35,300 bases of DNA from Herpetosiphonaceae bacterium (GTDB lineage: Bacteria; Chloroflexota; Chloroflexia; Chloroflexales; Kallotenuaceae), in the NCBI GenBank assembly GCA_030147335.1, contig JASKZZ010000083.1, positions 1-35,300 on the forward strand, given 5' to 3'. Within the stretch, counting starts at the first letter, position 1; each line of letters opens with the position of its first letter. The notes under the pieces were generated by a model. That model did no database searches. It had not been told where the DNA came from and worked only from the letters and a program-made list of their open reading frames with translations. Of the stretch, positions 1-24,360 are shown piece after piece. The position numbers and the translations under genes are program-made.

Positions 1-675
1 AAGGCGGCAAGCGGTGTTGATGCACTGGCCGTCCTCGGCGATGTCCTGCGCGGCCCTGATTACCAGAGCGACAAGGCCGGTGTTGCTGAATATTCGTGGC
101 ATAAGGCTGGTCGAGCAATTGATCTAAATATGAACGGCGGATTTCGCGTCGTTCCTGAGCGACTCCGTATTAATGGACGCACATACCAGTATCATCGCGT
201 GTATGTGCGCGATGTCGATATTACTGCAATTTTTCTTCGTCATGGCTGGACCCGCATTGGTGCACAAGGCAATGTGTCGGAGTGGTGGCATTTTGAATAT
301 CATCCGGAGCATGTGCCCTGGGCGGTCGCAATGCGACAGGTATGGAGCTTGCGCCAGCTTCAAGCAAGCTATCCTGATATTGCGTGGAAGCGCTGCCCGC
401 GTGGACCGCTGCCACGAATTACGGTGATAACGACGACTGCAACGCCAACGCCAAGCCCAACAGCAACGCCAACGGTCCCGCCAACACCGGAGCCGACTGC
501 AATGCCAACGCTTGTTCCGACCGTCGAGCCAACACCGGAATCGACCGCGATTCCAACGCTTGTTCCGACCGTTGAGCCAACACCGGAACCGACCGCGCAT
601 GAACCTGCGCCGTCGGAGGCTACCGACGCTCCTATTACTGAGCATATTCATGCCGAAGCAACGGCGACACCATAA
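1..675 (+). CDS. Peptidase M15 (VanY/LAS-type) cell-wall hydrolase, C-terminal part with Pro/Thr-rich tail; 5' end lies outside the window
   Basis: Frame 1 is open from nt 1, so track ORF 130..675 is only the first internal ATG. Nt 1-129 translate to ...AEYSWHKAGRAIDLN, matching the SxHxxGxAxD metal-ligand motif of VanY/M15 peptidases. SEWWHFEY supplies the second His motif. The tail is TPTP/EPTP low complexity and ends with TAA at 673-675. Confidence 0.7.
   Translation, partial: KAASGVDALAVLGDVLRGPDYQSDKAGVAEYSWHKAGRAIDLNMNGGFRVVPERLRINGRTYQYHRVYVRDVDITAIFLRHGWTRIGAQGNVSEWWHFEYHPEHVPWAVAMRQVWSLRQLQASYPDIAWKRCPRGPLPRITVITTTATPTPSPTATPTVPPTPEPTAMPTLVPTVEPTPESTAIPTLVPTVEPTPEPTAHEPAPSEATDAPITEHIHAEATATP
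505..600 (+). repeat. 48-bp tandem duplication (2 copies, about 44/48 identical) inside the PT-rich linker coding region
   Basis: Copy 1 is ccaacgcttgttccgaccgtcgagccaacaccggaatcgaccgcgatt (505-552). Copy 2 is ccaacgcttgttccgaccgttgagccaacaccggaaccgaccgcgcat (553-600). Both encode PTLVPTVEPTPE(S/P)TA. Confidence 0.85.
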
Positions 676-689
676 AGGGACTCAGCGTC

Positions 690-2288
690 GTGAAGCAAAG
701 CCGTTCAATTCATATCGTGCTAGCACTGAGCGTCATTGCCTTGTTGACCGGATGCGCCGGTGAGCTAACGCACGCTGACCTTAAAGCAACAGCAGTTATT
801 ACTCGCTGCTGGCCCGGTAACTTCCCAACACCGGCGCCCATTACCGTGACACCCGCGCTCCCTGTATCGACGACAACACCGGAAGCGGGAACACCGACTG
901 CCACTGCGCTGCCAACAACAACGCCGCTACCGCGCTGCGCGCCCCTGCCGGGACAACCGACGCTGATTCCATATCCAACAGCATTGCCGACCCCTGTCAG
1001 CTATCCTACAGATATACCTCGGCCAGTGCGTGGAGGCAGCGATACGCGCACGATTATGGATCTGCCGGGTGTCATTCACAACATTGATATAGCGGTTCAT
1101 CCGGCCTATGGCTGGCCAGCAGTTGTTGTGACCAATCAAGACTGGATGGGCTGGAGCGACTCAAACCGTCGGCGTATTTTTGCAATGGTGTACAACCCCA
1201 AAGCGCGTACCTGGGGCACAGGCTACCAGCTAAATCTGCCTCCGGAAGACGGCAATGGCGGGTACGGCGGTGCTGCTGTCGGCATTACCGGCGACGGAGT
1301 TGTGCATGTCGCATGGGGCGGCTCGTTCACACCAGATCGGCCCGTGTGGTACAGCCAAAGCTCTGACTACGGCGACACCTGGAGCGTGCCCATTAAGATC
1401 GGCCGTAACTGCTACAACGTTCAAGATATTGCAACAACGCTTGATGGACAGGTGCTTGTCCTTGCCTTATGTTCCCCTGCGAACGAGTCAGCATTCAATG
1501 TGCGACCGGGACTTATTCAGCGTCGCGCAGACGGTACATGGCTCCCGCAAGAAGAATACGATGTCGATGGCCGCTGGGGCAGTGTGGTCATTATGCGGGA
1601 CGGCGACGACGCCAGAGCGGTTGCCTTGCTCGCCAACCATGACAATACGGGAACAGGCTACATTTTACAAAAGCGATTGGGTGATACCGGTGAGTGGAAC
1701 GTACAATCGAAAGATCTGTCACCACCGGCAGGCTACACACGAACGGATGCTGATTATTATCTGTTCCGTGCTATGCCGTTCCGGCGTCCAAACGGCAGCG
1801 ATGGACTTGTGTTCACATGGTCCACCTATGGTGCAAACGCGGTGTATGCCATAACGTCGCTTGATGGTGGTCGTAGCTGGGGAAACACTGAGGCTATTGT
1901 TGCCTATCAAGAAACACCCGAAACAGAGCCGCAGCCGCTGGATTACCGCTACTCTGCGCCTGCGTATGATGCGGCGTCTGATCGTCTGGTCATGATGTAT
2001 GTCGGACGCGACATGAAAACTACGTTTCCCCAGGTCGGCACGCATTACGCGAGCTGGTCAGTTCCGGGAAGTGGCGTGTGGTCGCCATCAGAAGTGCCAG
2101 GCAACTACCAGCCCCATATTCCTGTTGTCACAGGCGCGGAGCGAGCGGCGTATACCGCAACTGCGCAAACCAATAATGCTAGTTTCTTCTGGTTGGCCTG
2201 GGTTGATCGGTATCAACAGGTCAAGGTGCGTTCTATGGATCTTAATCTGATTATCCCAATTGATCAATATGGGCGGGGAGGTTCGTAA
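690..2288 (+). CDS. Lipoprotein with BNR/Asp-box (sialidase-like beta-propeller) repeats
   Basis: GTG start lies downstream of AAAGGGA. Signal peptide carries the lipobox LLTGC, followed by a PT-rich linker. Asp-box motifs are SSDYGDTWS and SLDGGRSWG (S-x-D-x-G-x-T/S-W). The stop overlaps the next start (TAATG at 2286-2290). Confidence 0.6.
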   Translation: MKQSRSIHIVLALSVIALLTGCAGELTHADLKATAVITRCWPGNFPTPAPITVTPALPVSTTTPEAGTPTATALPTTTPLPRCAPLPGQPTLIPYPTALPTPVSYPTDIPRPVRGGSDTRTIMDLPGVIHNIDIAVHPAYGWPAVVVTNQDWMGWSDSNRRRIFAMVYNPKARTWGTGYQLNLPPEDGNGGYGGAAVGITGDGVVHVAWGGSFTPDRPVWYSQSSDYGDTWSVPIKIGRNCYNVQDIATTLDGQVLVLALCSPANESAFNVRPGLIQRRADGTWLPQEEYDVDGRWGSVVIMRDGDDARAVALLANHDNTGTGYILQKRLGDTGEWNVQSKDLSPPAGYTRTDADYYLFRAMPFRRPNGSDGLVFTWSTYGANAVYAITSLDGGRSWGNTEAIVAYQETPETEPQPLDYRYSAPAYDAASDRLVMMYVGRDMKTTFPQVGTHYASWSVPGSGVWSPSEVPGNYQPHIPVVTGAERAAYTATAQTNNASFFWLAWVDRYQQVKVRSMDLNLIIPIDQYGRGGS

Positions 2289-3550
2289 TGCGCCACTCGC
2301 TTAGCACCCGTGCGCGACTTGCAATCGCTGCCGTCGTTATTGTGCAAACACTGCTTGCGCTTGCCTGCGCGCCCACAACGGCAATTCCGACGAGCAGCGA
2401 GCCACGCTGGGCGTGTCCCAGCGTTACGCCACAGCCGACACGCGTTAAGGAGTCTCGGCCTTTGCCGACAACAACTCCAAGTGTTGATCCAGGCACGGAG
2501 GACACGTATTACGAGACGTGGGAACAAGAGTACGGCCATCCGATCATGACGCCAACACCCTATGCGCGAACCGGGTCCACGCATCTATTGGGCCAGCGGG
2601 TTGAAGTGTGGCCGTTGCATGTGCTGGTAACCGCACGCGACGGGGCGCTGGTTGGTGACAAGCAACTGCATACCATCCGCATTACCTGGCTCAATAATGG
2701 CTCAGAGCCGCTGCCGATGGATTATGTAACACGTGTGCGTCTGCGCGGTATTCGTAAGCCAAATGGGCAAATGGTGCTGACCGATGCGCCAACAACGGCT
2801 GCCGCGCGAACCGCATCCGGTTTACCGGAGTTGCCCGACATGATACCGCCGGGAGAAAGCACGGTTGACATCCCGATCATGTCGGAGCAGGGAACGACGG
2901 AAACCGTAGCGGTGTTGTTCCTTATGTCAAACTCTGCGGCAATGGCGCAAACGACAACCGCCCAATCATCAACACCAGTACCCACGCCAACGCCGACAGC
3001 AACAGGGAACACAGAGCTGCGCAACGACGATGGTTTGCCGCTCTTAACCGTGCAATGGAACAAAGGTGTTCAACAACCACCGTGCGATGATCCGGGCGTG
3101 ATTACCAATTGGGGCGACGGTGCCGCACCCGTTGCGGGGATTGCAGCGCCTGCCGGCGCTGATCGGGTTGTGCAAATCGCGCTCAACCAGGTTGGCAAAC
3201 GGTATGTCTGGGGAGCGAAAGGTCCAAATCAATTTGATTGCTCAGGACTTGTGCAATGGGCGTATGCGCAGATCGGCATTCGCATCCCGACTGGCACCGC
3301 TAATCAATGGCCTGGCCTGCCGGTCGTGTCGCCGTCACAGGCAAAGCCGGGCGACCTGATTTTCTTCGACACGCTTGGCGCTGGACGCATAACGCACGTC
3401 GGTATGCTTGCAGGCGATCTTAACGGTGATGGCAAGTGGGACATGGTTCACGCTGCTAGTCCCGAGTATGGCGTTCGCATAGATTACAGCGTATTTGAGC
3501 GTCCATATTACGCCAATATGTTCCGTGGCCTGCGCACGGTGCGAAGATGA
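2288..3550 (+). CDS. NlpC/P60 (C40) family peptidoglycan endopeptidase with N-terminal lipoprotein signal and an unknown middle domain
   Basis: GGGAGG RBS precedes the ATG. Signal and lipobox are LLALAC. The C-terminal block VGKRYVWGAKGPNQFDCSGLVQWAYAQIGIRIPTGTANQW...GDLIFFD...HVGML is the classic NlpC/P60 Cys/His core. Confidence 0.9.
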   Translation: MRHSLSTRARLAIAAVVIVQTLLALACAPTTAIPTSSEPRWACPSVTPQPTRVKESRPLPTTTPSVDPGTEDTYYETWEQEYGHPIMTPTPYARTGSTHLLGQRVEVWPLHVLVTARDGALVGDKQLHTIRITWLNNGSEPLPMDYVTRVRLRGIRKPNGQMVLTDAPTTAAARTASGLPELPDMIPPGESTVDIPIMSEQGTTETVAVLFLMSNSAAMAQTTTAQSSTPVPTPTPTATGNTELRNDDGLPLLTVQWNKGVQQPPCDDPGVITNWGDGAAPVAGIAAPAGADRVVQIALNQVGKRYVWGAKGPNQFDCSGLVQWAYAQIGIRIPTGTANQWPGLPVVSPSQAKPGDLIFFDTLGAGRITHVGMLAGDLNGDGKWDMVHAASPEYGVRIDYSVFERPYYANMFRGLRTVRR

Positions 3551-4230
3551 AACGTTGCACGTGCTCATTTGTTCGTTCTCTGTATCTGCGGTTGCAGCGT
3601 GTTGGCACCGTACTGCTGGCGTTGATTGCGCTGGCGATCCTGCCGATGCCAACGCTGGCACAAAGCGCCACGACAACATTAACGGTTCAAGTACGAGATA
3701 CCGCTGATCGACCACTCGCGGAGATCGCAGTACGTGTGGTTGGAGCGTCCAGTCGAGAACCGTTGGGGCAGGCAACCACCAATGCGAATGGTCTTGCAAT
3801 ATTTGATGCCATACCTGCGAGTGAGGTGCGTGTGGTGCTTGAAGGTACCCTGCCGAGTGGCACAGCGCTCACCTTGATCGGGCAGGATGCGACTGGTATC
3901 TATGCCAACCTGTCAACGTCAAGTTGGCTGATGGATCTGCGGGTTGATGAGGATGGTTCTGTCTTTCCTGATCTTGGATTGAACAGCGCAGGCGCTGCGG
4001 ACGGCGATGATCACGCTGCCATTATGGTCGGCACCATACCAGCAGCGATGGCACAAACTGATCCCAACCCGACCGAGCGTGTATCAGTCACCACTGAGTC
4101 CGCTGCTGGATATGCAGAACCTGCGACTGATGTGCAGGTGTCACGAGTCGAAATATTCATGAGCCTGCTACTGGCGTTGATCCTGATTACATCACTGGGT
4201 GCGCTTGTTGTTTTTGGCCGTCGTATTTAA
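3547..4230 (+). CDS. Secreted, C-terminally membrane-anchored protein with a carboxypeptidase-regulatory-like (Ig-like beta-sandwich) domain
   Basis: ATGA start/stop overlap with the upstream gene. Signal peptide is LLALIALAILPMPTLAQS. LTVQVRDTADRPLAEIAVRVVG...ATTNANGLAIFDAIPASEVRVVLEG resembles CarboxypepD_reg-type domains. The C-terminal TM is IFMSLLLALILITSLGALVVFGRR. Confidence 0.55.
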   Translation: MKRCTCSFVRSLYLRLQRVGTVLLALIALAILPMPTLAQSATTTLTVQVRDTADRPLAEIAVRVVGASSREPLGQATTNANGLAIFDAIPASEVRVVLEGTLPSGTALTLIGQDATGIYANLSTSSWLMDLRVDEDGSVFPDLGLNSAGAADGDDHAAIMVGTIPAAMAQTDPNPTERVSVTTESAAGYAEPATDVQVSRVEIFMSLLLALILITSLGALVVFGRRI

Positions 4231-4252
4231 CGGGTGATTGGAGCTAGGTCGT

Positions 4253-4693
4253 ATGTCCAAGATCACACAGCATCGCTTTGTATTCGTATTAATCACCAGT
4301 TGTCTTATGATAGGTGTGTTGTCCGGGTGCAGCATTATTTCCACGCCGAAAACGAGTCCTGATAACGTCCACACATCATTTCTCACGGCGCTTCAGAACA
4401 ATGACCGGACCAAACTTCTCGCGCTTTCTCACGACGAAACATATAAGACCGAAAATGCGGATAACCGCCTGGAAAAGATTCGATACGAAATGAGTTCCAC
4501 CAACCCGCGTACGGGTGGACTCCTGTCAAACATCGAAGTCGTGTCATTCTCAGCCGAAGGTGAGGGCAGACGGGGTATTAGCCGTTGGCATTATGCCAAG
4601 CGAACCATCTGCCACGATGCGTTGTTGGCGCAAACCGACAAGGGCTGGCGCGTCATTGCCTGGTACGAATTAGCTCAATGTCCCACTTCATAG
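4253..4693 (+). CDS. Small lipoprotein, possibly NTF2-like fold (function unknown)
   Basis: The track ORF starts at TTG 4238, but ATG 4253 sits 9 nt after GGAG (4240-4243). Lipobox is VLSGC. PDNVHTSFLTALQNNDRTKLLALS is typical of the first helix of NTF2-like lipoproteins (weak inference). Confidence 0.6.
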   Translation: MSKITQHRFVFVLITSCLMIGVLSGCSIISTPKTSPDNVHTSFLTALQNNDRTKLLALSHDETYKTENADNRLEKIRYEMSSTNPRTGGLLSNIEVVSFSAEGEGRRGISRWHYAKRTICHDALLAQTDKGWRVIAWYELAQCPTS

Positions 4694-4719
4694 TCTAGTA
4701 ACGTTTGGAGATATCAACT

Positions 4720-7362
4720 GTGCGCTCGCTCATCTTACCCCGGTTGCGATCCTTGCTCGCGTTGCGTATGCCCCGGTCTTGGCTGCGGCTATCGCGAAGT
4801 GAACAGGCGCTGCTTCTTCTTTCATGGCTGTGCACCATGTTGATCCTGCCCGCGCAGCGTGCAGCAGCATGTAGTTGGGACGATGTCGGATGCACCTTCC
4901 AGAGCTTTAGCTACCCGTTATATCTTGGCGTAGCGAGCTCGATCTGGACCCTTGATCGGATGCTGCTCATGTTGACCTACCAGCTTGAGCATATGCGCGC
5001 ATGGCTGATTGAGGTTGTGTTTACATCAGCTTACCAGACGTTAGCCGAGGCGATCCGTCCGGGTCTTGCTCCGATTGCCACGATTGCTGTCATTATCGGC
5101 GTGCTTGCCTTTTTGATCATGCCCGTTTTCGGCAAAATCGAGGTCGTGAACATTCGACGTGCCCTGGTCTGGATCGTTATCGCACCGACGCTGCTCACTG
5201 TAAGTGGCGCATGGCTGGCCCAGGTTGAAACGTTCCGAACAAACATCGGCGGTGTGTTGTTCAATGCAGCAGCTGGCGCGGCAGCAGGTGATATCTTCGG
5301 CGCATCCGCAGGTGATATGCCGACAGAAGCTAATCTGCTGTATGCTTCGCCCAGCAATGCGTGTGGCTCGACCATTGAGCGAGCCTTTCCGATGGAAGCA
5401 GGCGGACAACCCGTGCCACAGATGGATGATCTGGCTGCAACAATGTTGTATGCCGACGCCGTCGACATTCATTGCCCACAAAAGCGTGAAAGTCAGCCAG
5501 GCCGCGGCGTATTGCCGCTCAAGTTTTTCCAGACGCCGGAACCTAACTACGCGGTTGACGGCGATATCGGAAATTTCAGCGATGCTGAACGCGCCGAAGC
5601 AATCTACAACATCCAGGAAGGCATTAATCGCCTGTTGCTTGGCATCATTCCGTGCGTGCTTGCCGTTTGTTTTGCCTTAATCCAGCTCATCTTCTCATTT
5701 GCGCTGGTTGCGATCTGGATCAGCCTCCCGATTGGCCTGTTGTTCGTTTTCTTCAACGAAACTGCCGGTGGCGTTACCGGTATGTTCCGCCGCGTCGTTG
5801 GTGTGCTCCAGGCCAGTTGGTCCGCCAGTCTGTTGATGGGCATCGTTTTTGCGGCCCTGATTGCGTCAGCAAGAACCGGGAGCGCGACGTCGTATGCCGG
5901 CTTGTCGATTGGCGGCATTTTGATGTCCATCTATGTCATGAAAAGTGCCGTTGAAACCCTGCTTACCAGCATGAAAACCATCAGCGCATCGATCAGCAGC
6001 GCGGCAGGACTGAGTGACGGCGGCACGTTCACCAAAGCGGCAGCTGGCGTGATGGTCGGTGGCGTAGCTGGCGCAGTTGGCGCAGTTGGCGTAACCATGG
6101 CCACATCGTCAAGCATGGCAACGTCGGGAATGGTTGCGTATCGCGCAAGTGGCGGCAATGGACGATACGCTGCCGCTGCCGCGCTCGGCCGGATCAAGCC
6201 GGTGGCCCGGTTAGGCGAAGTGGCATCCATGATGGGTATTCAGAACGAATTTACCGAGGGCATGTACGCTTCTCAACTTGCTGCCAAAAACAAAGATAGC
6301 GGCACGGCGTGGCGAAAAATGCGCGATCTTACGGTGAAAGATCAGACGAAACGGCTGGGTGATGGTACAACAACGCTAGCCGAGCGGGCCGAAGAGCGTA
6401 AAGTGCGCAGCCAGCTTAAGGATCATGAACCGTCGATTGACGCGTTTACCGCAGCTCGCAATCAATGGCGCGCTGTTGGACGGGGTCTTAGCAAAGCAGG
6501 CACAGCCGTTGAAGACGCGGTGCTTAATCCTGGACAAACGGCTCGCGCAGCCCTCAATATTGCCGGTAAACCGCTCGGTCCTGCCCGTCGCAACATTGCT
6601 GCGCTTCGCGCCGATGCGCAATCACCACACACATCTGGTGGGGCACTTCGTGCCACTGCGCGTGCTGCGTCGCGCGGCTCATTCCGTAACCACGATATGA
6701 TGGGTGTCGTGCTTAATCGGGGAGACAACGGTCCTACACTCACATATGTTGATCGTGTGGCGGATGAGCTTATTCCCGAATCAGCAGTAACCGAACGCGG
6801 AACGTTAGCGCAACGGGCTGAATGGCTACGGGATGGGCATATCGTCCAGCGAAATACTGACCGCACCTTTACGCACTGGGATCAGAAAGAAACCCTCGAA
6901 CCGGCTGTTGCAGAACGTGACGATGATGATGAAATCGTCGCGGCAGCGAGTGTTTCAGATGATGACGATACGACATTGATCCCTGTTGTCAATCCATCCA
7001 GTCCACGCCAACGTGCCTTGAGTCGTGCGCGCGTGAACTCAACGGCTCGGTCGCTTAACCAAGCGCCACGCGATGCGGCAGGCACACGGCGCCGCCCACG
7101 CGCCATGTTGCATGCCGAGCGCGAACAGCGTACCCACATCGCAACAACGCTGCGTGAAGAACAGGCGCTGCAGGCTGAAACCGCACGACGAGGCGCGCAA
7201 CGTGAACGAGCGCATCAGGTGCGTGCACGTGGACGAACCACGGCCGCACAGCGACGTGACCAACATCGGTCTGCTCCAGCCGTGCCCATTCGCAGGTTTG
7301 GGTCAACCCGTGCCTACCAGCAATCAATGAATCGCCATCTTAATCCACCAACCAACTTGTAA
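4720..7362 (+). CDS. Polytopic membrane protein, VirB6/TrbL-like candidate, with a long Arg-rich hydrophilic C-terminal tail
   Basis: The track ORF starts at TTG 4705, but GTG 4720 lies 9 nt after GGAG (4707-4710). At least 7 hydrophobic segments are present, e.g. IATIAVIIGVLAFLIMPVF, LLLGIIPCVLAVCFALIQLIFSFALVAIWISLPIGLLFVFF and SLLMGIVFAALIASA. The last ~400 aa are charged or disordered. The VirB6 call rests on topology and context only. Confidence 0.55.
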   Translation: MRSLILPRLRSLLALRMPRSWLRLSRSEQALLLLSWLCTMLILPAQRAAACSWDDVGCTFQSFSYPLYLGVASSIWTLDRMLLMLTYQLEHMRAWLIEVVFTSAYQTLAEAIRPGLAPIATIAVIIGVLAFLIMPVFGKIEVVNIRRALVWIVIAPTLLTVSGAWLAQVETFRTNIGGVLFNAAAGAAAGDIFGASAGDMPTEANLLYASPSNACGSTIERAFPMEAGGQPVPQMDDLAATMLYADAVDIHCPQKRESQPGRGVLPLKFFQTPEPNYAVDGDIGNFSDAERAEAIYNIQEGINRLLLGIIPCVLAVCFALIQLIFSFALVAIWISLPIGLLFVFFNETAGGVTGMFRRVVGVLQASWSASLLMGIVFAALIASARTGSATSYAGLSIGGILMSIYVMKSAVETLLTSMKTISASISSAAGLSDGGTFTKAAAGVMVGGVAGAVGAVGVTMATSSSMATSGMVAYRASGGNGRYAAAAALGRIKPVARLGEVASMMGIQNEFTEGMYASQLAAKNKDSGTAWRKMRDLTVKDQTKRLGDGTTTLAERAEERKVRSQLKDHEPSIDAFTAARNQWRAVGRGLSKAGTAVEDAVLNPGQTARAALNIAGKPLGPARRNIAALRADAQSPHTSGGALRATARAASRGSFRNHDMMGVVLNRGDNGPTLTYVDRVADELIPESAVTERGTLAQRAEWLRDGHIVQRNTDRTFTHWDQKETLEPAVAERDDDDEIVAAASVSDDDDTTLIPVVNPSSPRQRALSRARVNSTARSLNQAPRDAAGTRRRPRAMLHAEREQRTHIATTLREEQALQAETARRGAQRERAHQVRARGRTTAAQRRDQHRSAPAVPIRRFGSTRAYQQSMNRHLNPPTNL

Positions 7363-7430
7363 CAACCTGCGCTACAACAACGAAGCAGACAATGAAATCT
7401 TTTACCACAATCACAGGAGAGTACGGACCC

Positions 7431-9428: not shown

Positions 9429-9430
9429 TC

Positions 9431-9457
9431 GGCATCCGGGGAAATTCCCCGGATGCC
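9431..9457 (+). terminator. GC-rich hairpin directly after the stop of the 7431..9428 gene (11-bp stem, 5-nt loop); possible terminator without a U-tract
   Basis: ggcatccgggg-aaatt-ccccggatgcc is followed only by tt. The same core recurs inverted at 25309-25331. Confidence 0.45.
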
Positions 9458-9571
9458 TTGACCTCAAAACGATCAATCGTGCGGGGGACCAATGGGCTAG
9501 CTGGTACTGGCCGTAATGGGTTATCCCCTGACTGATCGAAACATAGTATAAGAAGTAGGATCACGTTAGCT

Positions 9572-11373: not shown

Positions 11374-11420
11374 AAGAGCGCCCGATGGAGGCAGAAATGC
11401 GTCCGCGGGCGCTCTTTTTT
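11374..11420 (+). terminator. Rho-independent terminator ending the first operon
   Basis: aagagcgcccg (11374-11384) pairs with cgggcgctctt (11406-11416) and is followed by a T-run to 11420. Confidence 0.75.
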
Positions 11421-11592
11421 GTTAAGTTTTTATACCGATCAGGATGAAGGGGGTGTTGCTCAACACAACAACATAATCGCCTGCATCACCTGGCCACCCT
11501 GATATTGGCCCATGTTCGCCCAATCACTCAGGTTCGTGTATCGCATCGGTTTCGTCAACAACCTGTTTTACTTGTAAAGGATCGTTGTACAC

Positions 11593-11823: not shown

Positions 11824-11919
11824 GTTCGTGTTGGACGGGCCAGCTTCAATCATTGCGGCTGGCCCGATGTGTACCGGACGAAATGTATTACATAACTGAT
11901 CGCGGAGTGGAGTTTTGGG

Positions 11920-14791: not shown

Positions 14792-14799
14792 ATTGCACC

Positions 14800-17289: not shown

Positions 17290-18578
17290 GTAGCCACAGC
17301 AAAACTTCACAACCACTGGGAATGGGATTTGACAAAGCCCGTGGCAACAAGCCGGCGCATCCAGATGCGCCACGGTGGATACTCGCGATTATTAGCCTGG
17401 TCGTAGTCCTGATTGGCATATTCGGTGCTTCGATGGTGGAAGCCGTGGAACGCAACAGTGTCTCGTTCCAGGCATATATGCTTGAGCGCAGCACTGCTGT
17501 GAACAAGCTGGTCTGGTATTTCCAGATGGCTGCAATGGGCATTGGACTGCTTACAGCAATTGGCTATGTGTTGATTCCAGTTCGCTGGTGGTGGTGGCGA
17601 AAAACCATACGGGGATTTAGCGGTGAGTATATGGCTGTGGTTCTTCCCCGTCCCGACGGTAAGACCACGTCTACGAGTAATAATCCTGACGCTCCATTTG
17701 TATTCTGGGATCGCCTGTTCAAGATTATCGGACGTGCCAAGAATAAATCATCCAACGCATATCTCGCGGCAGAGCTGTGGGGGAGTGGAAGCGGTCGTGT
17801 CCAATGGGCGTTCTACCTGCCCTCAACTCTGCAAACAGAGCGCGAAGCCATCCGGCGCTTAATTACAGCTGAACGACCACAAGCACGCCTGGTCACGATG
17901 CCTGACCCTTTGGAAAAAGCGTTAAGCCTCGACCCAAGTGATCCAAATGACACGGGTGAGCGTTACTACGCCGGCGCAGTTCTCAACCTTCGAACGCGAG
18001 ATTTTTATCCGTTGCCGGTTGACGGACTGATGCTTCCTTCATTGGTCAGTACATTGCGACCGCGTACTGGAGTGCTAAGAAGTGGTGTTTCAGTCGTTGT
18101 CTCACCTGCAAGCTATCTATGGGCCAGACGAGTCAACCAACTTGTCCAACGATGGTTATATCACAGCCACGACTATAAATGGGACCAGCGCTTCGGTGAG
18201 GAAACAAAAGACATCAGGATGAAGGTTCAACAGAACCATGCTCGCACGTGCGTGCGCGTCCAGGTCATTGCTACAACCAAAGACGGAGCGGTAGCTGAGC
18301 GGGACGCCTTGATTACGTCATTGGAAAGCAGCGAAAGACAGTATAGCCTTACATCTCAGTCGCTTAAGGTTCGCAAAAAGATTGTGCTTCAGCTGCGCAA
18401 ACCTGCCCCGACGAAAAAACCCGGTGCCATTGAGGTGCCAGCACATATGCCTGCGGGGGGGCGGCCATCGGCTACTGACGTCGTGGTACGTGAAATTCCA
18501 GCCGAGTTTCGTGTGCGGGCTCCGTTCCGCCCTGACATTCGCAATTTGTTCATCATCCCGTTCCCTCCATTTTCTTAG
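17286..18578 (+). CDS. Two-TM membrane protein with about 330-aa cytoplasmic domain; candidate membrane partner of the downstream coupling ATPase
   Basis: ATGA overlap with the upstream gene. TMs are WILAIISLVVVLIGIFGASMV and VWYFQMAAMGIGLLTAIGYVLIPV. It is in the same reading frame as 18600..20792, separated only by two TAG codons (18576, 18585). Confidence 0.55.
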   Translation: MSSHSKTSQPLGMGFDKARGNKPAHPDAPRWILAIISLVVVLIGIFGASMVEAVERNSVSFQAYMLERSTAVNKLVWYFQMAAMGIGLLTAIGYVLIPVRWWWWRKTIRGFSGEYMAVVLPRPDGKTTSTSNNPDAPFVFWDRLFKIIGRAKNKSSNAYLAAELWGSGSGRVQWAFYLPSTLQTEREAIRRLITAERPQARLVTMPDPLEKALSLDPSDPNDTGERYYAGAVLNLRTRDFYPLPVDGLMLPSLVSTLRPRTGVLRSGVSVVVSPASYLWARRVNQLVQRWLYHSHDYKWDQRFGEETKDIRMKVQQNHARTCVRVQVIATTKDGAVAERDALITSLESSERQYSLTSQSLKVRKKIVLQLRKPAPTKKPGAIEVPAHMPAGGRPSATDVVVREIPAEFRVRAPFRPDIRNLFIIPFPPFS

Positions 18579-18599
18579 ATTGCATAGGACGTAGCGTAT

Positions 18600-20792
18600 A
18601 TGCCTGGTTTAGTAGATTTAGTGGCTCGCCCAACCGTTTGTTCATCTGGTGAAGTTACACAGATGTGGGCTATGCCTGGTGCCGAGTTAGATCAGATGGT
18701 GGAGTGGGAATCATGTACGTTTTTGCCGCCACCGCAGTTCGCCTTTCTACCGAATTATACGGAGCCTCGCACCCGCAATGCGGATGCGATGCCGACCATT
18801 GGTGATTACCCTGTCCGGCTAGCAGAGGCCGAGCGGCCTGATGGTTCGACCCAGTTCGTTGGGATGCTTGCCCGTGACTTCTTAACGGCGATGACCATTA
18901 TGGCGCCGATGGGTACCGGCAAGACGCATCTTGCAAAGATTATTCTGAGCGAGATGCTGCGTATAGGCGCAGGGGTCTCCGTCACTGACTTCAAAGCCGA
19001 CCTTGTTACAGATATGCTCGACACGATGGTGCCCCGTGACAAGGAAACCACCACCTGGGTCGTTGATATGGCCGATACCGCTTGGCCGGTCGCCATTAAT
19101 CCGCTGATGCAGCCTGGAGTTAACCCCCGCGATGCCGGCGATCGCGGCCGCATGGCTGATGGTCTCCAGTCGCTCATTAGCCGGTTTGATGATTCGTTCG
19201 CTCAGGGCGCGGGTATGCAAGAGTTTGCGCGTAACGCGACGCTGGCGTTGGTCGAAGCGGAGCCAACGCCCGACCTGTTGAAACTACACCGCTTCATGGT
19301 ATCCGAGCCGTACCGCATGAGCTTAGTGCCTCATATGCACGACGGTATGGTGCGTGAGTTCTGGGCGCGCGATTTCCCCGCACGTGGCGAGCAGTCGAAA
19401 ACGAGTGTCGATGCACTTGTTCGACGTTTCGGCATGTTCTTGATGAACCCCGTCATCCGGCACGTGGTCTGCCGTCCGCGCACAACGCTTGATTATCGTA
19501 AAGCAATGGACCAGGGGTATATTGTGCTCGCGAGCGTGCCGGTCGAGACGATCGGCAACAAAATCGGCGGTTTTGCTGCCATGATGATCCAGGAATTGTT
19601 GAATGTAGCTGCGTTCTCACGCGCTGCGGACAAGGTGCCAGATGAAGAACGTCGATTTTTCCTGAACCTGATCGACGAGTTCCAACAGGCCGTTAACTCC
19701 GGCGATCCCGCAGCAGTTGCAACCCAGATTTCAAAACTCCGTGCAATGGGTGTTGGCAGTGTGTATCTGTATCAGTCGAGCGCACAAATTCCGCCGGATC
19801 TCCGAGCGCAAATTGAATCAAACGTCGCTAATGCCATTTGTCTGGGAGCTATGGGTGGCGATATCCCGACACTGATGCAACGATGGGGCACACATCTTAC
19901 CGATGCCGACTTTGCAGGAATGCGGCGGCGCGAAGATATGTACATGCAAGTTCAGGTCAACGAGCAAAAAACACCACCTTTCCGTGCTCGCTCGTTGCCA
20001 CTATGGCCGACGCTAGAGCCGTTGCCTCTGGGTCCAACTCCACGCGAAGATTGGCGTGACATCCGCGCGCCCATCGCTGAAGATTGGCATGCCTGGATGG
20101 ACGAAAAGATCAAGGGCATCCAGGATTACGAGCGCGCGGCCACAATCCAGCGCGATGAGGCGAGAGCGTTGGAGTCGCAGGCAAACTTGCTGGAGCGTGG
20201 TCAAAAACAGGCCGCCGACGTCGCCCGCGACCAGTACCAAAAAACACGGAGCGAGTGGCCAAACGACGCGCAAGCCTTGCGAGATCGGGCCTTTATGATC
20301 AAGCGTACAGCAAACGATCTCGAGCGAGCACCGTTGCAGTTGCTGATCCAGGCACCCGGCCGCATTTTTGACCTGTATCGTGACCGCAGTGCCCAGCACC
20401 GGAAAGCACAACACCAATTTATTAACGCCAACCCAGCTGCGATCCCTGATACCCGCCAGCGTATTACCTGGCTTAGCCGTCTTGCCCTTGCCGAACCGCA
20501 GGTCGAAGTTGCAGCCTATGTCGAGCGCACCATTGCCCAACTTGCGGGGGTGGAACCGGTTGTCGAAGTTACGAAAGGTGGGAAGGACAAGGAGCAATCG
20601 TCGCGAGTAAGCCAGATCATCGCGCCTGGTCAAATCAAACAAACCAGCGACCAGGGGCCGTCTCACTTAAGGCGATTGGGCGGCGATATTCAAACAAAGA
20701 TTGCAGAAGATCAACGAAGTGAGCAGCAGGCAATTGAGGACGTTACACCGGTGTGGAATCCTAATGAGGACACCGAAGACATGAGTTTCTAA
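18600..20792 (+). CDS. VirD4/TraG/TraD-like type IV coupling protein ATPase, no N-terminal TM helices
   Basis: AGGA RBS precedes the start. Walker A is IMAPMGTGKTHLAK and Walker B is RFFLNLIDEFQQAV, followed by KLRAMGVGSVYLYQSSAQI (T4CP-like Q-S..Q motif). The first ~100 aa contain no hydrophobic helix. The C-terminus has a coiled-coil and an acidic end. Confidence 0.8.
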   Translation: MPGLVDLVARPTVCSSGEVTQMWAMPGAELDQMVEWESCTFLPPPQFAFLPNYTEPRTRNADAMPTIGDYPVRLAEAERPDGSTQFVGMLARDFLTAMTIMAPMGTGKTHLAKIILSEMLRIGAGVSVTDFKADLVTDMLDTMVPRDKETTTWVVDMADTAWPVAINPLMQPGVNPRDAGDRGRMADGLQSLISRFDDSFAQGAGMQEFARNATLALVEAEPTPDLLKLHRFMVSEPYRMSLVPHMHDGMVREFWARDFPARGEQSKTSVDALVRRFGMFLMNPVIRHVVCRPRTTLDYRKAMDQGYIVLASVPVETIGNKIGGFAAMMIQELLNVAAFSRAADKVPDEERRFFLNLIDEFQQAVNSGDPAAVATQISKLRAMGVGSVYLYQSSAQIPPDLRAQIESNVANAICLGAMGGDIPTLMQRWGTHLTDADFAGMRRREDMYMQVQVNEQKTPPFRARSLPLWPTLEPLPLGPTPREDWRDIRAPIAEDWHAWMDEKIKGIQDYERAATIQRDEARALESQANLLERGQKQAADVARDQYQKTRSEWPNDAQALRDRAFMIKRTANDLERAPLQLLIQAPGRIFDLYRDRSAQHRKAQHQFINANPAAIPDTRQRITWLSRLALAEPQVEVAAYVERTIAQLAGVEPVVEVTKGGKDKEQSSRVSQIIAPGQIKQTSDQGPSHLRRLGGDIQTKIAEDQRSEQQAIEDVTPVWNPNEDTEDMSF

Positions 20793-20802
20793 GGAATGCA
20801 TT

Positions 20803-21243
20803 ATGTCACTCGTCTATGCCCCAGTTATGTCTCCTGGTGCTGCACTAGCTGCATTACGTGCATCTCGACATATGACTCAGGAAGAATTAGTCAAGCTAAG
20901 TGGCTTAGGACGTAGAACTATTCAGAGGTTGGAGAACGGTGAAAATGCTCGGCCGAGGCGGGCGTCGCTGGTTGGTCTCGCGCGTGCATTTGGACTAACA
21001 GTTGATCAACTGAAACATGATCTGGGATTAGCTCCTTTTGGCTCTCAACGGCCGGAAACACCGACAAACAAACAAGCGGAAAGCTCTCGATTTCCTTATG
21101 GACCACGTTTGGATCGTATAGCTCTTATGTTTCTTAATCTTTCATCGGCTCAACAGGACTATGTTGAGAGTGTAATTCTGAATTTACACAGCGCACGCTA
21201 TCAGCCAGATCCGAGGGACATCGAAAAGGATGCAAATAAATGA
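20803..21243 (+). CDS. XRE-family helix-turn-helix transcriptional regulator
   Basis: AAGGA RBS precedes the start. MTQEELVKLSGLGRRTIQRLENGENARPRRASLVGLARAFGLTVDQL is a canonical HTH_3 (Cro/C1) domain. Confidence 0.85.
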   Translation: MSLVYAPVMSPGAALAALRASRHMTQEELVKLSGLGRRTIQRLENGENARPRRASLVGLARAFGLTVDQLKHDLGLAPFGSQRPETPTNKQAESSRFPYGPRLDRIALMFLNLSSAQQDYVESVILNLHSARYQPDPRDIEKDANK

Positions 21244-22340
21244 ACACAGTACCTCGACACCTGACACGTGGCCAGCTTGACGATAACGCAACACGGATCG
21301 ATTGGGAAATCATGCGCATGTTATGGATATGTCATTTTGCATCACCGCACCAGTTAACCAGGCTCGTACTTGGAACAGCATCTCACTCCAATCGAGTGAA
21401 AATGAATGCGATTTTGCTGCGACTCCGTGCATCGACAAAAGTTTGGTACGAGCCTAAAAATTTATTCAGGGGGAGTACTGATAACAAGGAACATTTCAAC
21501 GGAATGGTATCGGGAGGTCGATTTTACGGTCTGACCCAAGCGGGAAAGAACCTCATGAGCGACATTGCTCCTGACTTCATGCCCGAACTCCTGCAAAGCC
21601 ACTGTACTGTTCGTGAGTTCTATTTTTCAATGGCAGGCCGAAATTCCATGCGCCATTCTGGTCACTATACAGAATTCTGCACGCGTTTTATCACTGAGAT
21701 GCGCCACCATCCACGCACACTTGGAATATTCATAGACACTGAGTGTACACGCTTGGGCAGCCACCTGCGTATGGATGGACTGCTTCGGCACAGATTCTTG
21801 AAAAATCTTCAGCCTAATGTTCCGAATACCGACGTTATGCCGTGGTATGTACCGTGGCTACTTGGACTACGCTCGCCAGGTGATCCTAATGTGATTGACC
21901 GCACATACTCTATTGAGATTGACGAGAACACGGAAGAACTCGAGATCATCGTACGGAAAGCCCAAAATTACAAACGAACGTTTCTTGGTGGGATGGATCG
22001 TCCAAACGTACCCCGAGTTGCGTGGGACAGTATTTTATGCCCTTCCGGGGCGCAACTACCACCCGAGGCGCGGCAAAAATACTTTCCCATTCCTGTCTTT
22101 GTTGTCCCAGGACCGCAGCGGTTGGCGAATGTACTGGCAGCATGGCAGATGGGATGGCCCAACGGACCATTTCTTGGGACACATTGGGGATTACTTAACC
22201 AAGCACAGTCGATAACAAATGCACCATACCTCAACATCAATGGTCAGTGGATAAATTTGATTGGCAACTCCCATGGCTATCAAGGACAACTACCGACACC
22301 GGCACGTATAACGCTTGACCCTCGAGGCAAACACGTATGA
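21240..22340 (+). CDS. Replication-relaxation (Replic_Relax, PF13814-like) family protein
   Basis: ATGA overlaps occur at both ends (21240-21243 and 22337-22340). The N-terminal pattern TRIDWEIMRMLWICHFASPHQLTRLVLG...NRVKMNAILLRLRASTKVWYEP matches the family's winged-helix opening (D..IL..L...R.lT..QL..L.F ... L..L). Assignment is by eye. Confidence 0.55.
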   Translation: MNTVPRHLTRGQLDDNATRIDWEIMRMLWICHFASPHQLTRLVLGTASHSNRVKMNAILLRLRASTKVWYEPKNLFRGSTDNKEHFNGMVSGGRFYGLTQAGKNLMSDIAPDFMPELLQSHCTVREFYFSMAGRNSMRHSGHYTEFCTRFITEMRHHPRTLGIFIDTECTRLGSHLRMDGLLRHRFLKNLQPNVPNTDVMPWYVPWLLGLRSPGDPNVIDRTYSIEIDENTEELEIIVRKAQNYKRTFLGGMDRPNVPRVAWDSILCPSGAQLPPEARQKYFPIPVFVVPGPQRLANVLAAWQMGWPNGPFLGTHWGLLNQAQSITNAPYLNINGQWINLIGNSHGYQGQLPTPARITLDPRGKHV

Positions 22341-22792
22341 CGACATCAGCAAATGTTCCAGCACTCTTTGACTCAGCAACGAATAGCGAGTGGTTAGTGC
22401 TTTTGCATCAGGGGCTCGATTCTCTCCGACGTTCACACGAATTAACTCAGCAACAACTAGCTGAGGCTTCGGGTCTGAATCGAGAAACGATTGGCAGAAT
22501 TGAACGTGGACTGGTTCGCACAAAGCTGCAGCAAGCAACAGTAGCAGCTCTTGCCGCAGCCTTTAAGTGTTCAACATTATTTGAGTTTCGGGAGGCCTTA
22601 CAGCGATCACGGAATTTAGGTGTTATTCGAAATACAACAGCACTCCAGATCGATGCGCGATCTCATCGACTCCTTCTGGCTTTTCAAGAACTTTCGCCTG
22701 CACAGAAGGACACCGCCGAAGCTGTTGTTATGCGCTTACTTGCAAATGTGCGGGCGCACCGAGTCGGCGAGGAAAAGCTGTGCACCATGTAG
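22337..22792 (+). CDS. XRE-family helix-turn-helix transcriptional regulator (second copy)
   Basis: LTQQQLAEASGLNRETIGRIERGLVRTKLQQATVAALAAAFKCS is an HTH_3 domain. The gene is translationally coupled to the upstream gene. Confidence 0.85.
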   Translation: MTTSANVPALFDSATNSEWLVLLHQGLDSLRRSHELTQQQLAEASGLNRETIGRIERGLVRTKLQQATVAALAAAFKCSTLFEFREALQRSRNLGVIRNTTALQIDARSHRLLLAFQELSPAQKDTAEAVVMRLLANVRAHRVGEEKLCTM

Positions 22793-22905
22793 TCACGATC
22801 ATTGTCGGTATGCTGCAGATATGTCCGTGCGTCTGCTCCATTTGCTACCATTCGGCACGGAACCCGTTCACGTCGTAATACCACTACATCGGAGCAATTA
22901 CCGTC

Positions 22906-24339
22906 ATGGCTCGCATCTACACCCAGCCGACCACCGCGTCAACAGGCGCTTTGACCGTCGCTCTTTCCGTTCCAACCTTTGTCGATGAGGCTCCCACTAT
23001 GCTCAATCAAGCACCGTCCAACGACTACAACGCAATGCTCGAGTCCACCGTTCTTCCTGCCCTTTCCAACGACCCCGTGATGACAGTGCCGGCATATGAT
23101 CTTGCCGATGCTGCACCGGAATCAACCACACCTGCAACGTTGCCGATGGCATTGGCTACAGCCGTTTCAAACGGAAGCACGAGTAAGAAGAAGCGAAAGA
23201 AGAATAGAAACACACAGGATGGCCAGGATTCAGCAACTGTGAACTCAGCGGCTCAGACAAAACCACCAGTCCAAACTGAGGAGGCGCCGACTGCAGGGAC
23301 ACCTCCAGTATCTGTTGAAAGCTCGCTGCCGATCGACGATACAACGCCGTTATCACCGGTTGACGATCCCAACAATCCTGACTGGAAAGACTACTGGCCG
23401 TCGAACGAACTTGTCATGTATGCAACGATGGATCCATCAACCGCTCAGGCGCCGACGCTTGACGGCATCCGCATGATTCGCACCCAGGCGCAGATTACCG
23501 AAATTGATCCTGAAACCAGCGAAGTGGGCATCGTTGCAAAAGTGCCGGTGCAGATTTTGCCGATGGCGCGTGGCTACGAACCGTTGTTCAACGAGATTAC
23601 ACGGGCACGCCGACGCAGTGAGCGAGTGCGACCTTTCATTGTTGAGCTGCGTGGTGTGTGCAAGCGATTAGCTGACCAGGATACCCGTTTTGCAACTGCT
23701 CGACGGACCACCTTGTTTGGTATGCAGATCAGCCAGGTAAAGCGCATCGACAAGGATCATATGCAGTTTGGCCGATGGCGGGGACGCGGCACAGTTGCTG
23801 CGGTTCGTCCATTTGACCTTAACGGCACTGAGTATTTCCGCGTCACGTTGGAAGTTGCCTCCACGAAGAGAAAGGTGTTCCTCCGTGGTGAAACAGCCCA
23901 GGTTGATCTGGTAGACGTGTTGATCCGCCGTGACCACAAGCATGCCAATCGCTTCAGCCGTGTCGGGCAGCGTTTGTTGGTCGAGGCTGAAATCACATCG
24001 CAGACCAGTGTTCTTCGGGATGACCACCCATCGCTTGAGGGACTGGACGACGATACCCGCGTAAAGCTGGGAACACTTCGCCAGGGTATTGTGCTGGTTA
24101 ACATGGGCGAGTTTGCCGACGCACGGGCCGAAACGGATTTCAACAACTGGTTGCGAACTGGACAAGGTAATCATGGACGTCCGGGACGAGGCCGACACCA
24201 GGACGGCACCGGCACGCGGATGACGCGCCGATCTGCTGCATCAACCGGTAATGGGTACTACACCCGTGAAAAGAATCAGTCAGGACAAACCAAGCAGGCG
24301 CAACATCAGGTTAGCAAGCAGGCCGAAGTTACTGCTTAA
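22906..24339 (+). CDS. Hypothetical protein; disordered N-terminus with a KKKRKKNR basic patch, folded core, Gly/Arg/Gln-rich C-terminal tail
   Basis: 477-aa ORF with GGAG 11 nt upstream. It is the last gene before a strong terminator. No family motif recognised. Confidence 0.6.
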   Translation: MARIYTQPTTASTGALTVALSVPTFVDEAPTMLNQAPSNDYNAMLESTVLPALSNDPVMTVPAYDLADAAPESTTPATLPMALATAVSNGSTSKKKRKKNRNTQDGQDSATVNSAAQTKPPVQTEEAPTAGTPPVSVESSLPIDDTTPLSPVDDPNNPDWKDYWPSNELVMYATMDPSTAQAPTLDGIRMIRTQAQITEIDPETSEVGIVAKVPVQILPMARGYEPLFNEITRARRRSERVRPFIVELRGVCKRLADQDTRFATARRTTLFGMQISQVKRIDKDHMQFGRWRGRGTVAAVRPFDLNGTEYFRVTLEVASTKRKVFLRGETAQVDLVDVLIRRDHKHANRFSRVGQRLLVEAEITSQTSVLRDDHPSLEGLDDDTRVKLGTLRQGIVLVNMGEFADARAETDFNNWLRTGQGNHGRPGRGRHQDGTGTRMTRRSAASTGNGYYTREKNQSGQTKQAQHQVSKQAEVTA

Positions 24340-24360
24340 TCACAACTCGCAACAACAAAA

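Follow-up and report, generated by a model that had tools for sequence, protein, structure and literature searches.

The question raised by the contig analysed here (JASKZZ010000083.1, from a Herpetosiphonaceae bacterium) is whether the long run of co-oriented genes at positions 1–24339 encodes a type IV secretion system (T4SS) devoted to conjugation and, if so, to which class it belongs and which gene supplies the relaxase. The window, as the term is used below, is the entire 35.3-kb NCBI contig, whose long open reading frames (ORFs) were listed with their translations. An earlier reading of the letters, referred to here as the original prediction, had recognised a VirB4 ATPase and a coupling ATPase in this run, together with many components that it could not assign and no relaxase. 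The present analysis supports, with a probability of roughly three in four, that a filamentous Chloroflexia bacterium is the host of a conjugative element whose transfer region is for the most part contained in 1–24339 and which would use a lineage-specific T4SS of monoderm type, very divergent and with most components going unrecognised by the standard profiles applied; the element is probably a large plasmid, an integrative and conjugative element being the alternative.

Every long ORF of 1–24339 lies on the + strand, and 18 genes are counted (previously 20 proteins). The junctions read in the sequence include a TAATG at 2288, ATGA overlaps at 3547, 17286, 21240 and 22337, and a 14-nt overlap between the VirB4 gene (start 12467) and the preceding gene 11920–12480; most of the remaining ones are gaps of 8–30 nt. 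Three gaps are larger, and one of these, the 305 nt that follow 11287, contains a strong hairpin with a T-run (aagagcgcccg...cgggcgctctt, then TTTTTGTT, at 11374–11424, the hairpin itself covering 11374–11417). This intrinsic terminator on the + strand separates operon 1 (1–11287), which holds the envelope-facing parts, from operon 2 (11593–24339), which holds the cytoplasmic-membrane engine and the DNA-processing set and is closed by a perfect 18-nt inverted repeat at 24354–24393. Both the single-strand layout with coupled genes and the division into two operons had been anticipated correctly. The contig ends show no terminal overlap by which circularity could be demonstrated, and a search for tRNA genes and Rfam families, as possible marks of an integration site, found none in the contig.

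The gene 18600–20792 (+) encodes a soluble VirD4-type coupling ATPase (type IV coupling protein, T4CP) that lacks a transmembrane (TM) segment and whose C-terminal region is a coiled coil; in it Walker A (MGTGKTH, residues 103–109) and Walker B (LNLIDEFQ, residues 355–361) are readily located. No sequence match was obtained in Pfam, NCBIfam or the PDB (phmmer; a profile of 14 sequences likewise returned nothing relevant from the PDB). A T4CP profile match is thus literally missing in Pfam and NCBIfam, but this negative is overturned by transitive homology and by the fold. In PLSDB (tblastn) the protein aligns to Haur_5107 of the Herpetosiphon aurantiacus plasmid pHAU01 (33.9% identity, E 2e-64), which itself passes Pfam T4SS-DNA_transf (26.0 bits vs a cut-off of 20.1), and more weakly to annotated T4SS DNA-binding or conjugative DNA-transfer proteins of Sulfitobacter, Embleya and Streptomyces. 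A search of 5.8 billion proteins added distant relatives at E 1e-10 to 1e-16, including P0018, in which TrwB_AAD_bind and TraG-D_C stand above the Pfam thresholds; TrwB_AAD_bind is matched only by the homologues P0018 and Haur_5107. The AlphaFold model (predicted local distance difference test, pLDDT, 69.7) was matched by Foldseek to HerA (2e-5), DotL (9e-5), VirB4 (1.5e-4) and TrwB (2e-4), with matches extending to 8e-4, and it places an all-helical block (residues 179–304) between Walker A and Walker B, an unspecific feature given that the fold also matches HerA and VirB4. On these three independent lines of sequence and model evidence (Haur_5107, P0018 and the fold) 18600–20792 is identified as a VirD4-family coupling ATPase, as originally proposed.

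The N-terminal TM anchor of VirD4-type proteins is not found in this polypeptide; the anchor module is a separate gene, 17286–18578 (+), placed directly upstream and encoding a two-TM membrane protein of 430 aa. This protein had been counted among the unassignable ones, a description that no longer holds, as BLASTP aligns it to residues 135–322 of Haur_5107 (E 1e-6) and hhalign aligns its seven-sequence family profile to residues 69–340 of the same protein (probability 94.6%, E 6.6e-8). The ATPase gene aligns to residues 365–814 of Haur_5107. In a 1215-aa fused protein of L014 (the related loci, numbered from L001, are JGI, Logan and NCBI contigs) the N-module is located at 102–367 (hhalign 79.7%, E 1.5e-5) and the ATPase at 523–1124. 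Since the two window proteins align to consecutive parts of both fused proteins, the window carries the fission form, and these alignments identify 17286–18578 as the N-terminal membrane part of the coupling protein in detached form; in Herpetosiphon this part and the ATPase make up a single polypeptide. The split arrangement is common to all close relatives (L001, L003, L004, L006, L007 and L009).

The second ATPase gene, 12467–14791 (+), was assigned to the VirB4 family of T4SS ATPases from its Walker motifs (Walker A GKTGYGKT, Walker B LLLIDEFH) and from two NCBIfam profiles, conju_CD1110 (E 7e-31) and TIGR00929 (E 3e-17), most of each profile being aligned; Pfam gave P-loop noise only and phmmer against the PDB was empty. 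With these significant NCBIfam matches the earlier identification as VirB4 stands, and the motifs that had been quoted for both ATPases are all present. Haur_5240 of pHAU02 (annotated 'VirB4 protein-like') is 28.7% identical over 99% of the length (tblastn, PLSDB), and any non-Chloroflexota plasmid VirB4 in PLSDB reaches at most about 22% identity, with E values of at least 1e-4.

Two small membrane proteins precede the VirB4 gene. The nearer one, 11920–12480 (+), whose end overlaps the VirB4 start, is a VirB3/PrgI-like protein of 186 aa with a TM hairpin at residues 38–74; its N-terminus is matched to that of the SCO6880 family of NCBIfam below threshold (E 2.4e-5), and no Pfam match was found. 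Of the PrgI/VirB3-like protein described before, the two-TM hairpin and the overlap with virB4 are confirmed; a match to a PrgI profile was not obtained. The other, 11593–11823 (+), encodes a protein of 76 aa with two predicted TM helices, in line with the earlier description, which by sequence and TM prediction may be VirB2-like or another small membrane subunit. It has no family match and is kept in all the related loci with 47–87% identity.

As for the relaxase, the gene 21240–22340 (+) is a candidate of MOBC type, recognised by the Pfam family Replic_Relax (PF13814) with 26.9 bits against a gathering score of 25.3. PF13814 has been equated with the MobC (MOBC) relaxase superfamily of CONJscan (Coluzzi et al. 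2017, PMC5357655, Table 1), and the MOBC relaxases are non-HUH enzymes related to PD-(D/E)XK proteins, with TraX of pAD1 as prototype (PMC12857230). The same family is found in the orthologues (unmarked match in L001 and L006, weak in L007), and the sole PLSDB homologue, Haur_5116 of pHAU01, itself scores 40.4 bits. In the alignment of six relaxase orthologues E145, D179, E226, D228 and K240 are among the invariant columns, and the N-terminus, as read from the sequence, resembles a helix-turn-helix (HTH). In every related locus the Replic_Relax gene follows the T4CP gene and lies between two genes for Xre-type HTH proteins, and the same pairing of a T4CP with a replication-relaxation protein is seen in a Streptomyces plasmid; in conjugative systems the T4CP and relaxase genes are typically neighbours (PMC12857230, section 13). 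The first HTH gene, 20803–21243 (+; Pfam HTH_31/HTH_3, E about 1e-10), encodes a candidate relaxosome accessory factor or regulator and keeps its position in L001, L006, L007 and L009; the position of the second, 22337–22792 (+; Pfam HTH_3, E 9e-11), is also conserved in the relatives. No HUH relaxase profile is matched by the window proteins, and 21240–22340 has no match in NCBIfam. The statement that the region lacks a relaxase is thus correct for HUH enzymes and has to be amended for a MOBC-type candidate that scores above the PF13814 threshold. Judged by sequence, the co-location of VirB4, T4CP and relaxase used in CONJscan-type detection is present, the T4CP being recognised indirectly and the relaxase marginally.

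The module is not confined to this contig. In L001, L003, L004, L006, L007 and L009 the genes from the VirB6-like one to that of the 477-aa protein (both described below) are arranged in the same order, with 27–87% identity per protein; operon 1 recurs in L010 and a more divergent version is found in L014, so that an order of 13–18 genes is seen in at least eight Chloroflexota contigs in all and, in part, on the plasmids pHAU01 and pHAU02. The named relatives are proteins from metagenome-assembled genomes (MAGs) of Chloroflexota, Chloroflexales and Chloroflexia, and together with the Herpetosiphon plasmids they agree with the filamentous Chloroflexota guessed at the outset. Tyrosine recombinase genes are located near the module in L006 and L010.

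The only annotated relatives from a cultured organism are two plasmids of H. aurantiacus DSM 785, pHAU01 (CP000876.1, L012) and pHAU02 (CP000877.1, L013). The latter matches operon 1 through VirB4 gene by gene (Haur_5250, 5249, 5246, 5245, 5243 and 5240; 26–43% identity), carrying at least VirB4, and no T4CP match was found there. The former has a VirB4, the fused T4CP Haur_5107, directly followed by a C25 peptidase gene, the Replic_Relax protein Haur_5116 and an NlpC/P60 gene. Both plasmids, as well as the Streptomyces plasmid NZ_CP108771.1 (L015), are typed as 'non-mobilizable' by MOB-suite in PLSDB. In pHAU02 the small 2-TM gene is separated from the VirB3-like one by a gene annotated as 'RNA-directed DNA polymerase' (Haur_5242, L013 9353–11116); the product of the latter looks like a reverse transcriptase of group II intron type, and the pHAU02 copy may be defective or dependent on pHAU01. 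In L005 (CAWAJS010000043.1) and L011 (ERZ25039476) the module is broken into many short ORFs, which looks like the result of assembly indel errors and not like real decay, and these two loci were used only for the genes that are still intact. No paper on a T4SS of Chloroflexota or Herpetosiphon was found in the open-access literature.

Operon 1 opens with the 3' part of a gene (1–675, +) whose secreted product would be a peptidoglycan peptidase of M15-like type ending in a PT-rich tail; in it the motifs SWHKAGRAIDL and WWHFEYH are present and Peptidase_M15_4 scores 19.1 bits against a cut-off of 25. The second hydrolase, 2288–3550 (+), is an NlpC/P60 enzyme (Pfam NLPC_P60, E 1.2e-20; NCBIfam RipC-like, E 6e-23) with a VirB1/PrgK-like role. 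Of the two hydrolases announced before, the NlpC/P60 one is therefore firm and the M15 one weakly supported, below threshold. The N-terminal ~160 aa of the NlpC/P60 protein align (32% identity) to the M23B peptidase Haur_5249 encoded at the same position in pHAU02 (L013 19030–20289), so that the catalytic domain has been swapped behind a conserved N-terminal module. Between both hydrolase genes lies that of a lipoprotein with BNR/Asp-box-like motifs (690–2288, +; lipobox LTGC at residues 19–22), in which SxDxGxTW-like motifs are read; it is 28% identical to Haur_5250 of pHAU02, its L010 orthologue (36% identity) has a faint BNR_2 match, and it is probably a beta-propeller surface protein.

Downstream of the hydrolases, 3547–4230 (+) encodes a type I membrane protein (N-terminal signal and C-terminal TM segment) with an Ig-like or CarboxypepD_reg-like domain, for which the Pfam matches are weak (E 3e-4) and the L010 orthologue gives an unmarked CarboxypepD_reg match. 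It is followed by a small lipoprotein (4238–4693, +; lipobox LSGC) with no Pfam or NCBIfam match, a homologue of which is placed elsewhere in L010; a VirB8-like (NTF2) role for it is a guess. The largest product, of 885 aa (4705–7362, +), is a polytopic membrane protein with about 5–7 TM segments and a hydrophilic tail of ~400 aa, in keeping with the roughly 880-aa polytopic protein first described. It is 26% identical to Haur_5246 of pHAU02 (E 3e-29) and has 37 homologue clusters, none of them with a Pfam match, the named ones being Chloroflexota or Chloroflexales MAG proteins. The protein itself has no Pfam or NCBIfam match, its family profile retrieved from the PDB low-complexity matches only and no VirB6, and a first metagenome scan with it found no relative; topology and position make it a candidate VirB6/PrgH/TcpH-like channel. 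The next gene, 7392–9428 (+), encodes a secreted protein with signal peptide and with SH3_3 (Pfam E 9e-6) and PPC (E 4e-4) domains, 43% identical to the 'peptidase domain protein' Haur_5245 of pHAU02, which is probably a wall-binding or adhesion protein.

Three conserved proteins complete the module. The last gene of operon 1, 9572–11287 (+), encodes a bitopic membrane protein of 571 aa (TM 194–220, with ~190 aa inside and ~350 aa outside) that is kept in L001, L003, L006, L007, L009 and L010 and whose family matches nothing in the PDB or Pfam. The last gene of operon 2, 22906–24339 (+), encodes a protein of 477 aa, acidic and disordered at the N-terminus, with ~260 aa at the C-terminus forming a conserved domain; it is kept after the second HTH gene in L001, L005, L007 and L009, its family has no PDB or Pfam match, and its sequence pattern allows no more than a guess at an OB-fold or single-stranded-DNA-binding role.

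The third, an 829-aa lineage-specific protein (14800–17289, +), lies between the VirB4 and T4CP genes. In its alignment four Cys are invariant in the N-domain, and the central domain has, at the P-loop position, a GxxxxG motif that lacks the lysine; a winged-helix domain and an acidic tail follow. Full-length homologues number only 9; the N-domain (~210 aa, window 14800–15500) is represented by 184 clusters at 50% identity, mostly proteins of 200–560 aa, and the 10 homologues sampled showed no Pfam family beyond an unrelated fn3 in one of them. The two members whose context was seen (L014 8001–9296 and L010 20008–21168) are both in related T4SS clusters, and in L014 a 431-aa protein with the four-Cys N-domain directly precedes the fused T4CP. 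Neither the 826-aa Streptomyces protein (hhalign) nor Haur_5108 (BLASTP) is significantly related to the 829-aa protein. The suspicion that it is a degenerate FtsK- or VirB4-like ATPase found no significant backing: comparison with the VirB4 family by hhalign fell short of significance, the AlphaFold model is poor (pLDDT 50), and the matches of this model in Foldseek, non-significant as well (R388 VirB4 chains, E between 4e-3 and 1.6e-2; FtsK gamma domain, TM-score 0.64, E 0.17), are no more than leads. From the list of proteins that could not be assigned, 690–2288, 3547–4230, 7392–9428 and 17286–18578 have now been placed, and 9572–11287, 14800–17289 and 22906–24339 are still without a family.

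From this arrangement we infer a path for DNA transfer. Operon 1 would supply two wall hydrolases, surface lipoproteins and wall-binding proteins, the polytopic channel candidate and the bitopic membrane protein, and operon 2 the 2-TM subunit, the VirB3-like hairpin, VirB4, the 829-aa protein, the split coupling protein, the HTH/Replic_Relax/HTH trio and the 477-aa protein. In this scenario the MOBC-type enzyme, together with the HTH proteins, would nick the origin of transfer (oriT) on the element, the soluble ATPase would dock on its membrane partner and pass the DNA to a channel powered by VirB4, and the hydrolases would open the cell wall. Homologies and families, the order and conservation of the genes and the split or fused state of the coupling protein are established by the comparisons, whereas DNA transfer as such, the tasks of the surface proteins and the site of oriT are proposals.

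Several observations weigh against a conjugative transfer region. DNA transfer is so far a prediction for every member of the group, the cultured Herpetosiphon plasmids included, and the position of oriT is conjectural. The margin of the candidate relaxase over the Pfam threshold is only 1.6 bits, and the name Replic_Relax covers 'replication-relaxation' proteins, so that the product could be a replication protein instead of a relaxase. The VirB4 score is far under the curated NCBIfam cut-off (107 vs 325 bits); as its scores lie under the curated equivalog cut-offs, the protein is taken as a member of the superfamily and not of those subfamilies. Foldseek puts the T4CP model in the right ATPase clade and cannot tell a T4CP from HerA or VirB4. 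The VirB6-, VirB3- and VirB2-like proteins are candidates named by topology and position, among which only the VirB3-like one has a profile match, below threshold, and no window protein matches a VirB8/PrgL/TcpC-like (NTF2-like) component in Pfam or NCBIfam. Finally, the reading frame of the first gene runs on to base 1 without a start, and the module is therefore truncated by the left contig end.

Since the score of 21240–22340 is marginal and its activity is predicted only, the explanation in which this gene is not the relaxase has been kept. The T4SS and T4CP would still be conjugative, 21240–22340 would encode a plasmid replication or regulatory protein, and the true relaxase would be novel (for example 22906–24339 or 14800–17289) or encoded outside the window. 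The missing NCBIfam match and the family name fit such a view, as do the two conserved proteins without family that flank the DNA-processing block and the cut at the left end of the window. Against it, the PF13814 matches recur in the orthologues, with 40.4 bits in Haur_5116, the position after the T4CP is kept in every locus and also in Streptomyces, and the invariant acidic and Lys columns are in keeping with a PD-(D/E)XK-type active site (PMC12857230), which leaves this explanation unlikely. A somewhat different proposal accepts the T4SS as real and denies it conjugation, the machine serving contact-dependent delivery of effectors or lytic enzymes, or adhesion and predation, in parallel to the use proposed for most T4SSs of Patescibacteria. 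Operon 1 is indeed unusually rich in wall hydrolases and in surface or protease-like domains, a C25 peptidase gene comes directly after the T4CP in pHAU01, Herpetosiphon is a predator (PMC4451040), and Patescibacteria, the sister lineage of Chloroflexota, have MPF-FATA-like T4SSs mostly without relaxases (PMC12102498). This proposal is nevertheless quite improbable, because the T4CP and the MOBC-type gene are adjacent in every related locus, plasmid partition genes adjoin the module (of the actin-like protein, ALP, type in the window, L005, L007 and L014, and ParA/ParB in L001) and no toxin/immunity pairs were recognised in the module by the Pfam and NCBIfam scans.

It may also be asked whether the cluster is a decaying, non-functional remnant on a contig ridden with insertion sequences (ISs). 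Three transposase genes occur in 25.9–31.9 kb, one of them parting the repeat array from the ALP gene, and some of the relatives give the impression of truncation or frameshift: VirB4 is the last gene in L010, the pHAU02 cluster is interrupted by the reverse transcriptase gene and gave no T4CP match, and L005 and L011 are fragmented. All 18 ORFs of the module, however, are intact and full length with coupled starts and match full-length orthologues along the whole protein, and no IS is present inside 1–24339, the IS elements being found only outside it. A remnant is accordingly the least credible of these explanations, with very little to be said for it, and a functional conjugative transfer region is preferred.

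Comparison with known systems bears on the class of this T4SS. The mating-pair formation (MPF) class MPF-FATA, represented by Prg/Pcf of pCF10, Tra of pIP501 and CTn2 of C. difficile, the last, which carries CD1110, being a reference element of the class (PMC12102498), is approached in several respects: the best VirB4 profile here is that of the CD1110 family, the VirB3-like gene overlaps virB4 as prgI overlaps prgJ (PMC12857230), and the two have in common a hydrolase of NlpC/P60 type, a large polytopic protein resembling VirB6, a T4CP of the VirD4 family beside the relaxase, and surface proteins in place of an obvious pilus. The window proteins differ in giving no profile match to PrgI, PrgH/TrbL, PrgL/TcpC or T4SS-DNA_transf, and the conserved proteins of 829, 571 and 477 aa have no counterpart there. 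For a PrgH-type VirB6, no match was found in Pfam or NCBIfam for any window protein, nor in Pfam for the 37 homologue clusters, topology alone agreeing. Plain membership of MPF-FATA was therefore rejected, because the VirB6 and VirB8 profiles are not matched, VirB4 is at most about 22% identical and three genes lack a counterpart. From the 'MPF-FATA-like core' of the original prediction, the monoderm-type module of VirB4 and T4CP is retained and the filing under MPF-FATA is not; nor does the gene set map one-to-one onto any typed MPF class.

Even the Herpetosiphon plasmids differ from the window, with only 24–43% identity between the proteins. The T4CP is fused in pHAU01 and split here, the catalytic domain of the hydrolase is M23 in pHAU02 and NlpC/P60 here, and in both plasmids the search for a homologue of the complete 829-aa protein was negative and the genes are annotated as hypothetical. 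The plasmid NZ_CP108771.1 of Streptomyces goshikiensis, of SCO6880 type, is similar in gene order, with small proteins, a VirB4-like ATP-binding protein, a hypothetical protein of ~826 aa and a C40 peptidase, and then a T4CP-like protein, described as ATP/GTP-binding, with a member of the replication-relaxation family immediately behind it; the sub-threshold match of the window VirB3-like protein to the SCO6880 family N-terminus points in the same direction. In pairwise comparison the T4CP alone is similar (23% identity, E 2e-8), whereas the VirB4 proteins, the ~830-aa proteins and the relaxases do not align.

The candidate relaxase shares its Pfam family, PF13814, with the non-HUH, PD-(D/E)XK-related proteins TraX of pAD1 and MobC of CloDF13. 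The N-terminal part of TraX is a winged HTH, and the direct repeats to which TraX binds lie at some distance from nic (PMC12857230); the window gene combines an HTH-like N-terminus with a direct-repeat array ~2.5 kb downstream, its profile score being marginal and the likeness one read from the sequence. The split coupling protein recalls TraI/TraJ of pIP501, a soluble VirD4-family ATPase with a separately encoded 2-TM protein (PMC12857230), although the separate protein here has 430 aa and is homologous to the N-terminal part of fused T4CPs. A further likeness is offered by P0016–P0018 (22–24% identity), in sequence the remotest relatives of the T4CP and tentatively guessed to be Patescibacteria proteins, in which a ~400-aa N-terminal module precedes the ATPase as in the fused forms; in Patescibacteria MOBC is the commonest relaxase class reported, often beside t4cp (PMC12102498). 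The N-modules of P0016–P0018 differ from the 430-aa family in that hhalign between them was not significant, the family giving significance only against Haur_5107 and the L014 fused protein.

These comparisons leave room for the tentative proposal, possible though doubtful at present, that the cluster and its relatives form a distinct, untyped MPF class of Chloroflexia, perhaps linked to the SCO6880-type loci of actinomycetes. Three features would jointly define it: the T4CP, prone to fission, would have a large membrane module at its N-terminus, the relaxase would be of MOBC type with an HTH protein on either side, and a four-Cys protein would be obligatory between VirB4 and T4CP. Under such a proposal the full-length 829-aa protein would add a catalytically dead P-loop-like domain, possibly a degenerate VirB4 paralogue, and an FtsK-gamma-like winged helix that might recognise the transferred DNA.

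Genes flow among bacteria mainly by conjugation, and the schemes that type its MPF and mobility (MOB) genes were built mainly from Proteobacteria and Firmicutes. Eight MPF classes and nine MOB classes are distinguished (PMC12102498). Since Pfam misses the VirB4 and T4CP domains of the window proteins and MOB-suite types the plasmids as 'non-mobilizable', surveys may rate the plasmids of Chloroflexota, and some of those of actinomycetes, as less mobile than they are, and profiles built from the family would make such elements visible. That Chloroflexota plasmids carry conjugation genes is unsurprising in itself; what deserves attention is the blindness of the typing tools, the coupling protein found both split and fused, which provides a natural handle on how T4CPs are anchored, and the conserved protein between VirB4 and T4CP. 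H. aurantiacus DSM 785 can be cultured and offers an experimental entry point.

To the right of the module, about four direct repeats of 12 nt (ATAAAGCGCCAA) are located at 24898–24944, the array mentioned above in relation to TraX. Comparable arrays with a period of 11–12 nt and a different sequence were found in L007 (19691–19734), L005 (16581–16626) and L014 (14218–14279), and all four lie between the end of the transfer module and an actin-like partition gene; the window array could be a partition centromere or, as in pAD1, a binding site of the MOBC relaxase within oriT. At 25099–25152 there are also two perfect tandem copies of an internally palindromic 27-nt unit (TTCGAAGTTCGAATGAACTTCGAGACA), and the surrounding 1.5 kb are without convincing genes.

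The partition cassette (27211–28760, +) consists of an actin-like (ALP/ParM-type) segregation ATPase (Pfam ALP_N and MreB-like_C) and a 151-aa downstream partner, with orthologues of 46–55% identity that immediately follow the module of L007, L005 and L014. A DDE_5 transposase gene (25918–27105; Pfam E 3e-53) is placed between the repeat arrays and the actin-like gene, and in L007 and L005 the distance from array to actin-like gene is only about 550–600 bp; this looks like a recent IS insertion that parted the partition operon from its upstream region. Two adjacent, paralogous IS4-like DDE transposase genes follow in tandem on the − strand (29082–30341 and 30512–31855). The right end of the contig is occupied by genes for a beta-propeller protein of WD40 type that begins with a TM segment (32962–34059, −) and for a lipase-family protein (34246–35163, −; Pfam Lipase, E 2e-12), which are probably cargo or flanking DNA. 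The IS load and the WD40 gene noticed at the outset thus correspond to one DDE_5 and two IS4-like transposases and a single WD40 gene on this flank, and the stretch with the WD40 and lipase genes has a G+C content of 0.45 vs about 0.55.

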